Shown here: positions 17,995 to 21,238 of the stretch, piece by piece
How positions within the stretch are numbered: position 1 is the first letter of the stretch
Layout: the number at the start of each line of letters is the position of its first letter
Assembly (NCBI GenBank): GCA_964291625.2
Contig: OZ220090.1
Location: forward strand, 224,001 to 288,000
Length of the DNA stretch: 64,000 nt
Direction of reading: 5' to 3'
Source of the DNA: Candidatus Latescibacterota bacterium
GTDB taxonomy: Bacteria > Latescibacterota > UBA2968 > UBA8231
Notes under the pieces: generated by a model
What the model was told of the DNA's origin: nothing
What the model saw: only the letters and a program-made list of their open reading frames with translations
Database searches by the model: none
Program-made: the position numbers and the translations under genes

Positions 17995-19245
17995 CTACCG
18001 GACCAGGTAGTACCGGCTCTTCCCGCGGCGGATCACCACGCAACGGCCGTGGAGGCGGTCGTCCCGGCCGACGCGGCGGGACTCCTCGGTGCAGCGCTCG
18101 CCGTTGAGGTAGATGGCGCCGGCGCCGATCTCCTGGCGGGCCTGCCGCCGGGAGCTGGAGACCCCGGCGTCGACGAGCAGCTCCACGAGGCCCTGCTCGT
18201 CGCCCTCCATGTCGTGGGAGGGCACGCCGTCGAAGGCCAGCTCCAGGTCCTCCTCCCGCAGGTCCCGCACCCGGCCCTGGAACAGGGCCCGCGAGATGCG
18301 CTCGGCCTGGCTGGCGGCCCCGGGGCCGTGGACGACGGCCGTGGCCTCCCGGGCCAGGGTGCGCTGCGCCTCCCGGGCGCCGGGATCGGCGGCCACCGAC
18401 TCCTCGAGCTGGCGGATCTCGTCGGGGTCGAGGAAGGTGAAGATCCGCAGGTAGCTGCCCACCGTGCGGTCGTCGGTGTTGATCCAGTACTGGTAGAATT
18501 CGTAGGGCGAGGTCCGCTCCGCCGAGAGCCACAGGGCCCCGGCCTCGGTCTTGCCGAACTTGGCGCCGCCGGCGCTGGTCACCAGCGGGCAGGTGAGGCC
18601 GAAGGCCTTGGCGCCGTCGGCCCGGCGGATCAGGTCGGAGCCGGCGGTGATGTTGCCCCACTGGTCGCTGCCGCCGGTCTGCAGCTGGCACCCGAGGCGC
18701 CGGTGCAGCTCCAGGAAGTCGAAGGCCTGCAGCACCATGTAGCTGAACTCGGTGTACGAGATGCCGGTCTTCAGGCGTGAGGCGACCGACTCCTTGGCGA
18801 GCATGTAGGGGACGGGGAAGTGCTTGCCCACGTCGCGCATCAGCTCGATGGCGGTGACCCCGGAGAGCCAGTCGAGGTTGTTCACCAGCCGCGCCGGGTT
18901 GGTCCTCACCTCGAAGTCGAGGAAGGGCTCCACCTGGGTCCGGATCCGCTCGGTGAAGGTCTCCACCACCTCCACCGGGTTCAGGGCCCGCTCGCTCTCC
19001 TTGCCGCCGGGGTCGCCGATCAGGCCGGTGCCGCCGCCCACGAGGCAGATCGGGTGGTGCCCGGCCAGCTGGAAGCGGCGCAGCATCAGCAGCGGCACGA
19101 GGTTGCCGATGGTGAGGCTGTCGGCGGTGGGGTCGAAGCCGTTGTAGAGGGTGATCGGCCCTTGGTCCAGCCGCTCCGTGAGGCCGTCGAGGTCGGTGAC
19201 CTGGTGCAGCAGGCCCCGGTACATGAGATCTTCGAGGACGTTCAT
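17995..19245 (-). CDS. tyrS: Tyrosine--tRNA ligase
   Basis: YNGFDPTADSL, GGGTGLIGDP, QTGGSDQWGNI, KFGKT and C-terminal S4 domain (RRGK). Confidence 0.97.
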   Translation of the reverse strand: MNVLEDLMYRGLLHQVTDLDGLTERLDQGPITLYNGFDPTADSLTIGNLVPLLMLRRFQLAGHHPICLVGGGTGLIGDPGGKESERALNPVEVVETFTERIRTQVEPFLDFEVRTNPARLVNNLDWLSGVTAIELMRDVGKHFPVPYMLAKESVASRLKTGISYTEFSYMVLQAFDFLELHRRLGCQLQTGGSDQWGNITAGSDLIRRADGAKAFGLTCPLVTSAGGAKFGKTEAGALWLSAERTSPYEFYQYWINTDDRTVGSYLRIFTFLDPDEIRQLEESVAADPGAREAQRTLAREATAVVHGPGAASQAERISRALFQGRVRDLREEDLELAFDGVPSHDMEGDEQGLVELLVDAGVSSSRRQARQEIGAGAIYLNGERCTEESRRVGRDDRLHGRCVVIRRGKSRYYLVR

Positions 19246-19261
19246 CTCTTTCGCTTCCCGT

Positions 19262-19302
19262 AAAGAAAAACCCCCGATGACGGGATCTCCGTCACCGGGG
19301 GT
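19262..19302 (-). terminator. Intrinsic terminator in the tyrS leader (attenuator)
   Basis: Minus strand ACCCCCGGTGACGG-AGATC-CCGTCATCGGGGGT followed by TTTTCTTT, ending 16 nt upstream of the tyrS ATG. Confidence 0.85.
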
Positions 19303-19324
19303 GTGAGGTCGAAGGGACCGGCGT

Positions 19325-19405
19325 CTAGCGCTCTGTTCCCCCGGTGCGGATGGTCTCGGCCCGGCGGTATCGGCGGTCGCTGACGATCGTTGCATCCGGT
19401 CTCAT
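19325..19405 (-). CDS. Putative tyrS leader peptide MRPDATIVSDRRYRRAETIRTGGTER
   Basis: The ATG lies 7 nt after the -10 box (leaderless). It has a single Tyr codon and contains a 9-nt arm complementary to the terminator 5' arm. Confidence 0.6.
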   Translation of the reverse strand: MRPDATIVSDRRYRRAETIRTGGTER

Positions 19406-19412
19406 GTCGGCC

Positions 19413-19442
19413 AATGTACAAGTCCCCGGCCGAAAACGTCAA
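19413..19442 (-). promoter_or_regulatory. Sigma70-type promoter of the tyrS leader
   Basis: TTGACG-18nt-TACATT on the minus strand. Confidence 0.65.
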
Positions 19443-19525
19443 TCTCGCACTCGGCCCCGCGCGGGGCGTCAGGAGCTCTCCGGCGCTATCTTCCCGTCCA
19501 TCCACCGAATCCAAGGAGATCCCCC

Positions 19526-20374
19526 GTGACCCTTCCCACCCGCACCCTCGGCCGCACCGGCGAGACGGTCACCGCCCTCGGCCTGGGCGGCGTCTGCTGG
19601 AACCTCGCCGACGAGGACGCCGAGGCCGTGGCCGTCGTCCACCGCGCCATCGATCTCGGCGTCACCTACCTCGACACCGCCTCCAAGTACAAGGAGAGCG
19701 AGCGCCGCCTCGGGCTGGCCCTGAGGGACCGCGACCGCGACGGGCTGTTCCTGGCCACCAAGTGCCTGGAGCGCTCCGGGGAGGCGGTGCGGCAGGAGAT
19801 CGCCGCCAGCTTCGAGCACCTCGGGGTGGAGCAGATCGACCTGATGCAGCTCCACGCCATCGACGAGGCCGGGACCCTCGAGGAGGTGCTGCGCCCCGAC
19901 GGCGCCCTGGGCGTGATCGAGGAGTACCGCCGGCAGGGCAGGATCCGCTTCGTCGGCCTCACCGGCCACACCCATCCGGCCCACTTCGTGCGCATGATCG
20001 GCGAGTACGACTTCGACACCGTCCTCAACCCCCTGGGCGCCGCCAACCGCGTCTGGAACGACTTCTCCTCCACCACCATCCCCGCCGCCCGCGCCCGCGG
20101 CATGGGGATCATGGCCATGAAGGTGATGGCCTACGGCCAGGTGCCGGCCGAGGACCGGGGGCTGTTCCTGCGCTACGCCATGGGTCTCGACCTCGACGTG
20201 GCCGTCGTCGGCATGGACACGGTGGAGCAGGTGGAGGAGAACGTGGCCCTGGCCGAGGCTTTCCCGCCGCTCACCAGTGCCGAGGAGGCACGGCTCTTCG
20301 ACGTCGCCGGACAGGTGGCGGCGGGGGACAAGAGCAAGCTGTTCTGGCTGCCCGAGACACGGGCCGCGGGCTGA
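19526..20374 (+). CDS. Aldo/keto reductase
   Basis: RTLGRTG, DTASKY..SE, ATK, DLMQLH and MAMKV. Confidence 0.92.
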   Translation: MTLPTRTLGRTGETVTALGLGGVCWNLADEDAEAVAVVHRAIDLGVTYLDTASKYKESERRLGLALRDRDRDGLFLATKCLERSGEAVRQEIAASFEHLGVEQIDLMQLHAIDEAGTLEEVLRPDGALGVIEEYRRQGRIRFVGLTGHTHPAHFVRMIGEYDFDTVLNPLGAANRVWNDFSSTTIPAARARGMGIMAMKVMAYGQVPAEDRGLFLRYAMGLDLDVAVVGMDTVEQVEENVALAEAFPPLTSAEEARLFDVAGQVAAGDKSKLFWLPETRAAG

Positions 20375-20386
20375 GGAGGAGGAGAG

Positions 20387-21238
20387 ATGGAGAAGCGCGA
20401 GTACGGCCGGACGGGCGAGAAGCTGTCCATCGTCGGCCTGGGCGGCATCCTGGTGAGCGGGGTCGATGCGGACGAGGCGAGGGGCCTGGTGGCCGAGGCG
20501 GTCGACCGCGGCGTCGACTACTTCGACGTGGCCCCCACCTACGGCAACGCCCAGGAGATGCTGGGCCCGGCCCTGGAGCCCTACCGCAAGGATGTCTTCC
20601 TGGCCTGCAAGACCACCGAGCGCACGGCGGACGGAGCGCGGCGCGAGCTGGAGGAGTCCCTGCGGCTGCTGCGCACCGACCACGTCGACCTCTACCAGCT
20701 GCACGCTGTCAACACCGACGAGGACTTCGATCAGGTCACAGGTCCGGGCGGCGCCCTGGAGCTGTTCCGCGAGGCCAGGGAGCACGGGATGACCCGCTAC
20801 CTCGGTTTCTCCTCCCATTCCTCGGAGACGGCCCTGCGCCTGATCGAGGCCGTGGACTTCGACTCGGTGCTCTTCCCCGTGAACTGGTGCACCTGGCTCG
20901 GGGCGGACTTCGGGCCCGCGGTGGTGGCCGCGGCCGAGGCCCGGGGGACGGCCCGGCTGGCGCTGAAGGCGCTGGCCCGCGGCAAGATGGCCGCCGGCGC
21001 CGAGCGCAGGTGGGCCAAGTGCTGGTACGAGCCGCTGGAGGACCGGGAGCTGGCCGACCTGGCCCTGCGCTTCGCCCTGTCGCAGCCGGTCACCGCGGCG
21101 ATCCCGCCGGGGGAGCCGGCCCTGTTCCGCATGGCCCTGGAGATCGCCGAGAGCTTCAGGCCGGTCACGGAGGAGGAGGTGGACCGGCTGAGGCGTGAGG
21201 CGGCTTCCGGCCGGCCGATCTTCGAGCTGGCCGCGTGA
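20387..21238 (+). CDS. Aldo/keto reductase
   Basis: YGRTG, DVAPTYG, ACKT and DLYQLH. Confidence 0.92.
   Translation: MEKREYGRTGEKLSIVGLGGILVSGVDADEARGLVAEAVDRGVDYFDVAPTYGNAQEMLGPALEPYRKDVFLACKTTERTADGARRELEESLRLLRTDHVDLYQLHAVNTDEDFDQVTGPGGALELFREAREHGMTRYLGFSSHSSETALRLIEAVDFDSVLFPVNWCTWLGADFGPAVVAAAEARGTARLALKALARGKMAAGAERRWAKCWYEPLEDRELADLALRFALSQPVTAAIPPGEPALFRMALEIAESFRPVTEEEVDRLRREAASGRPIFELAA

Follow-up and report, generated by a model that had tools for sequence, protein, structure and literature searches.

Expression of tyrS is usually described as being under T-box control. Among leader-peptide systems, pheM-pheST is a classical attenuator of the same logic as the one considered here, the attenuator leaders of E. 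coli and Salmonella begin translation from a Shine-Dalgarno (SD) sequence, and trpL of S. meliloti carries several sensor codons in a run. Attenuation of Streptomyces trpRS1 has reportedly been treated in a paper in J. Bacteriol. In the trp, his, leu, thr, ilv and pheA attenuators of E. coli and Salmonella, an upstream ORF (uORF) with cognate codons governs the choice between a 2:3 antiterminator and a 3:4 terminator. As far as the available text of Elf and Ehrenberg (2005, PMC1183508) goes, these attenuators possess at least two regulatory codons as well as a 1:2 pause hairpin, and in the textbook model few regulatory steps give low sensitivity.

Leaderless attenuators have also been described. 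In S. lividans, trpL2 is a leaderless uORF with a single Trp codon ahead of trpS, and leuL2-leuS, also leaderless, has a terminator ending in a U tail (Droste et al. 2021, PMC8079986, available text). The attenuator uORF of S. meliloti trpL is translated from a leaderless mRNA (available text of PMC7298713), and the mycobacterial polycysteine sORFs are leaderless attenuators with several sensor codons that act on translation initiation (available text of bioRxiv 10.1101/834739). Leader-peptide control has been predicted for trpS and leuS in Streptomyces (PMC1262725) and for hisS in bacilli (PMC2965389), uORFC-8-2 of cysS and uORFC-13-1 of aroF are predicted leaders (PMC8632094), and shikimate genes have Phe/Tyr uORFs (PMC6429828). 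These predicted leaders resemble the present one in the control of a synthetase by a leader peptide or in their Tyr sensor codons; the available main texts of the four papers contain nothing on tyrS, on single-codon leaders or on Latescibacterota. The available text of PMC4833913, PMC12612679 and PMC9413887 likewise contains nothing on tyrS leaders. In the available literature searched, we found no tyrS leader-peptide attenuator and nothing on attenuation in Latescibacterota.

The window analysed here, a 64,000-nucleotide stretch of the genome (G000, 95% complete) of a Candidatus Latescibacterota bacterium, carries a tyrS leader that resembles trpL2-trpS in having a predicted leaderless uORF with one cognate codon before an aminoacyl-tRNA synthetase gene. 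It differs in that the codon is for Tyr, in its full intrinsic terminator and 13-bp antiterminator, in preceding the only tyrS found and in belonging to another phylum; trpL2 has a Trp codon and two hairpins, with no U-tract found (PMC8079986, available text). It shares its logic with the E. coli and Salmonella attenuators, but has one codon, is predicted to be leaderless and shows no conserved 1:2 helix in our search. A T-box (RF00230) would similarly couple tyrS to tRNA(Tyr) charging through a terminator/antiterminator pair, but T-boxes bind uncharged tRNA directly, with no translation, and the RF00230 model is unmatched here.

Leader parts and predicted switch geometry at the tyrS locus

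We identified tyrS at 17995..19245 on the minus strand (ATG at 19245), encoding a tyrosine-tRNA ligase of 416 aa that matches NCBIfam TIGR00234 with 374 bits (cut-off 114). This is the only TyrRS found in the genome; PF00579 has two matches, and the other, located within the trp block, we read as trpS from its sequence. A sigma-70-type promoter lies at 19413..19442 (TTGACG 19442-19437, 18-nt spacer, TACATT 19418-19413), followed by a 26-codon uORF at 19325..19405 with ATG at 19405 and stop TAG at 19327-19325. The ATG stands 7 nt past the -10 box without an SD sequence, and we predict that the uORF is leaderless, with transcription starting at or next to the AUG. The only Tyr codon of the uORF, TAC 19369-19367, sits in the context CGC CGA TAC CGC CGG; this single sensor codon and the conserved rare Arg codon preceding it form CGA-TAC (Arg12-Tyr13, 19367..19372).

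The 5' strand of the antiterminator occupies 19338..19350, within uORF codons 19-23, and its core, CACCGGGGG at 19346-19338, lies 20 nt beyond the Tyr codon and is complementary to CCCCCGGTG at 19301-19293. The latter belongs to the 5' arm of an intrinsic terminator hairpin (19270..19302, 14 bp, core -26.7 kcal/mol); this arm is common to antiterminator and terminator, and a U-tract (19262..19269) lies directly 3' of the hairpin. The distance from the predicted start site to the terminator is ~105 nt. A preliminary description of this DNA had listed the promoter, the ATG, the 26-aa ORF with its sole Tyr codon, the complementary strands and the U-tailed terminator, and all of its coordinates hold; the antiterminator helix is longer than it had recognized, with 13 bp joining 19350-19338 to 19301-19288. 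Across 18900-19900, the promoter scan returned one match versus 0.0 +/- 0.2 in shuffles, and the terminator scan two overlapping calls versus 0.2 +/- 0.5.

Upstream of the promoter are two divergent genes, 19526-20374 (-) and 20387-21238 (+), neither with an NCBIfam match at 1e-20, which we take to be aldo/keto-reductase-like. No terminator was called between the same-strand gene of this pair and the tyrS promoter, so some transcripts may enter the tyrS leader from upstream. We also considered whether TyrRS might be extended at its N-terminus, with the in-frame ATG at 19395 as start and the terminator read as coding sequence, but rejected this because G002, which has a 98% identical TyrRS, does not keep the frame intact. 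Contigs of one RNA run cover 19022-19253 and 19296-20225 with a gap across the terminator. As assembled contigs they cannot reveal transcript ends or abundance, they all come from a single study, and they could contain DNA or be interrupted by the hairpin; we gave them no weight.

Folding of the window leader was computed with 12-18 nt masked ahead of the ribosomal A site, a footprint assumption. All 9 of 9 antiterminator core pairs form with the ribosome up to codon 14-16, and 0-1 form from codon 16-18 to the stop, depending on the footprint. With the ribosome on Tyr13, the two conformers have -41.5 and -40.0 kcal/mol, a difference of 1.5. Once both arms exist the terminator wins at equilibrium, and the switch must therefore be kinetic, that is, co-transcriptional. 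The naked nascent RNA likewise folds the antiterminator first.

In the family, antiterminator pairing was scored by constrained folding. A stall at Tyr gives at least 5 arm pairs in 49 of 62 leaders and fewer than 5 in the other 13, and the genus means are 7.2 pairs for the Tyr stall, 2.1 for a ribosome at the stop and 5.2 for shuffled sequences. Real pairing exceeds shuffled pairing in 15/15 genera, by a small margin in several. The folds, in the window and in these 49 leaders, agree with the earlier proposal that stalling frees the arm and translation to the stop masks it. The G-rich strand visibly changes along with the terminator arm in G000, G001, G008, G013, G014, G016 and G066. Among 18 representatives, own-arm pairing exceeds permuted pairing (p = 0.0015), with the own arm ranked first in only 3/18 rows of this cross-pairing test. 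No conserved 1:2 pause or protector hairpin was detected (mean z -0.39, 9/15 genera below 0); the window leader does have local folds.

Conservation and tyrosine content in the family

The tyrS leader is a real conserved element. The TyrRS N-terminus was matched in 69 of 76 genomes of the family, and the conservation counts cover those 69. A CCC...GGG hairpin with a U-tract lies within 260 nt of tyrS in 64 of them, and 62 have both the uORF and the terminator, which bears out the conservation of uORF and Tyr codon that had been put forward as a check. The uORFs were selected blind to Tyr, by a start after the promoter and a stop 20-45 nt before the arm (one has an ACG start). Both the 20-45 nt range allowed for the stop and the pattern used to call terminators were chosen once first results had been seen, and 28 of the 62 genomes come from one genus, kin not being independent, so these family counts describe rather than test. 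Both promoter hexamers are conserved, usually as TTGAC-17/18-TATATT. Elsewhere in the family, the G015 leader is truncated by a contig end, and G068 has Ns and no stop in the search window.

Five family genomes (G011, G027, G018, G020, G026) show no such terminator before tyrS. In one of them, G018, the leader (L182, G018:C1 37850-38110) has a promoter, a two-Tyr uORF with CGA-TAC, and hairpins that no U-tract follows; 8 nt situated just past the stop are complementary to the CGA-TAC region. Control there is possibly Rho-dependent or translational. Outside the family, none of the 43 genomes examined (of 68 with a match) carries such a terminator, and a looser search found two weak hairpins, neither with a Tyr uORF.

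In the five-genome clade of the window, the uORF has 26 or 27 codons (a 3-nt change) and the stop-to-arm spacer measures 23, 24, 25, 23 and 25 nt. Indels in these uORFs preserve the frame. Frame, stop position, GAC CGC CGA TAC CGC CGG, antiterminator core and terminator stem are constant, and the first uORF codons and the spacer are variable. The last 18 uORF codons vary at 8/54 nt versus 142/1248 nt in tyrS, so that their conservation within this clade does not go beyond that of a coding gene.

All 62 family uORFs contain Tyr; the numbers of uORFs with one, two, three, four, five and six Tyr codons are 7, 14, 24, 10, 5 and 2, respectively. The textbook form with two or more regulatory codons, absent from the window leader, is therefore present in 55 of 62. 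Over the 1281 codons of the 62 leaders, 184 Tyr codons are in frame versus 28 and 36 off-frame, and the in-frame excess holds in 14 of 15 genera taken singly, the exception being g10 (1, 0, 1). Tyr makes up 16.1% of leader residues (genus-weighted) versus 2.7% in the coding sequence of G000; at 5.9-fold it is the most enriched leader residue and the only sensor-like one in all 62. Both TAC and TAT serve as leader Tyr codons.

An in-frame start at +7 from the -10 box occurs in 13 of 62 leaders, namely 10/10 of the window's genus, G010 and both g6 genomes. Wherever a +7 start existed, the script gave it precedence; in G001, G003 and G009 there is another at +1. The bases between box and start are variable in these leaders and contain no SD. 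In the other 48 leaders for which a promoter was called, the start lies at +15 to +61, in many cases behind a purine-rich element. Among 62 consensus promoters of G000, 9 have ATG or GTG at +5 to +8, and several of these open long ORFs, one of them presumably LepA-like.

A quick tree built from 55 TyrRS proteins recovers the family as one clade (support 96) and places the +7 starts in a single clade of weak support (80), to which G016 (+16) belongs as well. A single Tyr arises three times on this tree, in the window's five-genome clade, in G008 and in G031. The leaderless start and the single Tyr are thus probably local, derived states; across the family the element mostly carries 2-6 Tyr codons along with a 5' leader. 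The preliminary description had called a single-codon leaderless design unusual, which is overstated in view of trpL2, S. meliloti trpL and the polycysteine leaders.

Leaderless single-codon leaders thus have precedent, and the mechanism itself is textbook. The leader described here would nonetheless place tyrS among the genes governed by leader-peptide attenuation, in an uncultured phylum where we found no report of the kind. The family offers a natural series, from one to six sensor codons and with led and leaderless forms, on one switch. This series makes it testable how few regulatory codons are needed and whether codon context can replace a run.

Proposed mechanism and competing explanations

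From the leader parts, their conservation, the in-frame Tyr enrichment and the computed folds, we infer a start site, translation of the uORF, stalling, termination and a response to Tyr, and consider the element very probably a transcription attenuator of the classical, ribosome-mediated kind, through which the supply of Tyr-tRNA(Tyr) governs tyrS expression. A ribosome would load on the leaderless 5' end of the transcript. With ample charged tRNA it would pass Tyr13 and, once it has reached about codon 17-18 and until the stop, keep the G-rich strand covered, upon which the 14-bp terminator would fold and transcription would end 16-25 nt short of tyrS. If charged tRNA(Tyr) is scarce, the ribosome would wait at Tyr13, and the G-rich strand would pair with the emerging 5' arm of the terminator, letting polymerase read into tyrS. 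The single regulatory codon falls below the textbook 'two or more' and counts against this reading, as do the 13 leaders with fewer than 5 arm pairs, the low ranks of the own arm in cross-pairing, the equilibrium preference for the terminator and the lack of a conserved pause hairpin. As the window's clade runs on one Tyr codon, its response is probably graded, not sharp.

The same RNA switch might instead take its main input from the Arg cluster (R11, R12, R14, R15) or from general elongation speed, the lone Tyr playing a minor or joint part. In the group of five codons centred on the sensor, four encode Arg, and all are placed where a stall leaves the antiterminator free; Arg is 1.9-fold enriched in the leaders, and a stall on an Arg codon of E. 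coli trpL also blocks attenuation (available text of PMC1183508). We nevertheless regard such an input as unlikely, because Tyr tops the enrichment and is alone among sensor-like residues in occurring in every leader, because the G012 leader has one Arg and four Tyr, because Arg flanks the Trp run of trpE leaders too, and because the controlled gene is tyrS. It is very improbable that the single-Tyr form is a decaying relic of a multi-Tyr ancestor, now providing fixed leaky readthrough only. Its apparently derived place on the TyrRS tree, the five family genomes without a terminator and the ordinary conservation of the last 18 codons (8/54 versus 142/1248 nt) would suit decay, but the frame, stop, sensor context, antiterminator core and terminator stem are constant in five genomes despite variable first codons and spacer, and one Tyr is retained in three separate lineages, always the Tyr that follows CGA.

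UAC is the Tyr specifier of T-boxes, and the Bacillota tyrS loci compared here carry T-boxes, so that the UAC of the leader could be the specifier of a degenerate T-box or another ribosome-independent switch in which the ORF is incidental. RF00230, however, matches 0/16 family tyrS loci versus 4/4 Bacillota controls and has no match in G000. A stem I with specifier loop and an antiterminator with UGGN bulge were not found at the leader, which has only ~105 nt from start to terminator, and the Tyr codons share one reading frame with start and stop. A scan of the leader region against Rfam gave no credible match (best E 1.5), in keeping with the preliminary description, which had seen no T-box motif; we find a ribosome-independent switch scarcely conceivable. 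Arrest by the nascent peptide, TnaC-like or at a drug-sensitive R-Y-R '+X+' motif, in place of a hungry-codon sensor has slightly more to commend it and is still highly improbable: the +X+ motif is known from macrolide arrest (available text of PMC12583479), and R/K-Y-R/K occurs in 15 of 62 leaders, including 9 of 10 in the window's genus, but is absent from the other 47, and neither sequence nor length (13-28 codons) of the peptide is conserved, its Tyr number ranging from 1 to 6.

Under ribosome-mediated attenuation, the CGA codon before Tyr may have a part of its own. CGA directly precedes Tyr in 22 of 62 leaders, in 9 of the 13 genera having a CGN codon there, and in 7/7 single-Tyr leaders (three lineages); since these represent three events and CGA is common in the family, the link between CGA and the single Tyr is only suggestive. 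The A of CGA looks selected, because across tyrS of 14 CGA carriers not one of 68 four-fold columns is invariant and no column exceeds 5 A. Elsewhere in the leaders, 15% of four-fold sites have A, and in G000 genes CGA makes up 2.9% of Arg codons, with 31/1991 before Tyr. G000 has tRNA-Arg with ACG, CCG, CCT and TCT anticodons. An exact-pattern search, in which the ACG control was found in 59/76 genomes, returned tRNA-Arg(UCG) in 0/10 of the incomplete genomes of the window's genus, G000 included, which must therefore read CGA by wobble. The same search found it patchily elsewhere, in 13/75 other family genomes and 27/31 of a sister family, genomes being incomplete. Its presence in four CGA-TAY carriers (G014, G016, G023, G029) weakens slow I:A wobble as a family-wide reason for CGA.

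We consider it possible, though rather doubtful, that CGA-UAY is a kinetic part, in which a P-site peptidyl-tRNA(Arg) on CGA lengthens or sharpens the hungry-Tyr pause and so lets the leader shrink to one codon. Against this stand the tRNA-Arg(UCG) of the four carriers and of the 27/31 sister-family genomes and the rarity of CGA before the sensor in a third family and in most family trpE leaders (counts below), and the CGA sites may be one inherited site. CGA before Tyr recurs in 21/23 cases of the trp leader of that sister family, mostly from one genus, where CGA makes up 14% of Arg codons in trpE, and in 1/12 of a third family. It directly precedes Trp in 5/19 family trpE leaders, including those of the window's five-genome clade (before the Trp run), and does not in 14/19. 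As a general rule CGA before the sensor was rejected, being absent from most trpE, thrS (among the matches listed) and aspS2 leaders. A conserved helix joining the Tyr region to the spacer past the stop, a possible reason for CGA, gave no overall signal (mean z -0.39): the A of CGA is paired at less than 0.1 in the pre-arm fold of the window's clade but does pair just past the stop in some six other leaders.

Other leaders in the genome and in sister families

Leaders whose codons match the gene that follows also occur in G000 ahead of trpE, thrS, a second aspS and cysH, and the window's family appears to apply the leader-peptide device to several synthetases. Among 22 synthetase-family matches surveyed in G000, a clear leader with terminator was seen only at tyrS, thrS and the second aspS. 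The thrS leader is Thr-rich (G000:C1 4539318-4539500, +; L227) and recurs in many relatives among the matches listed. That of the second aspS is Asn/Asp-rich (G000:C1 3778881-3779040, +; L228), with two leader types among relatives, and cysH (PAPS/APS reductase) is preceded by seven consecutive Cys codons (G000:C1 4278884-4279045, +; L229); all have terminators. The trpE leader (G000:C1 1706215-1706098, -; L226) combines a Trp run with a terminator, and a terminator and Trp uORF occur in 19/19 family genomes matched (L230-L248), the other 57 of 76 having no match to the query.

In two sister families, tyrS lies at most 9 kb downstream of trpE in 46 of 50 genomes, the trp operon includes tyrS, and the trpE leaders (L320-L371) are multivalent, with Trp, Phe and Tyr. 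No linkage of tyrS to trpE is seen in 19/19 genomes of the window's family, where tyrS has its own Tyr leader. The simplest history would be that tyrS left the trp operon and then gained its own Tyr leader. The R-Y(n)-R-R leader core resembles the leader of one sister family, and the terminators differ. In one sister family, many trpE leaders lack an ATG within range and may begin at a different start codon. At G000:C2 772418 (-), a promoter is followed after 30 nt by a strong terminator ahead of a presumably GreA-like gene, a candidate short attenuator without a clear uORF.
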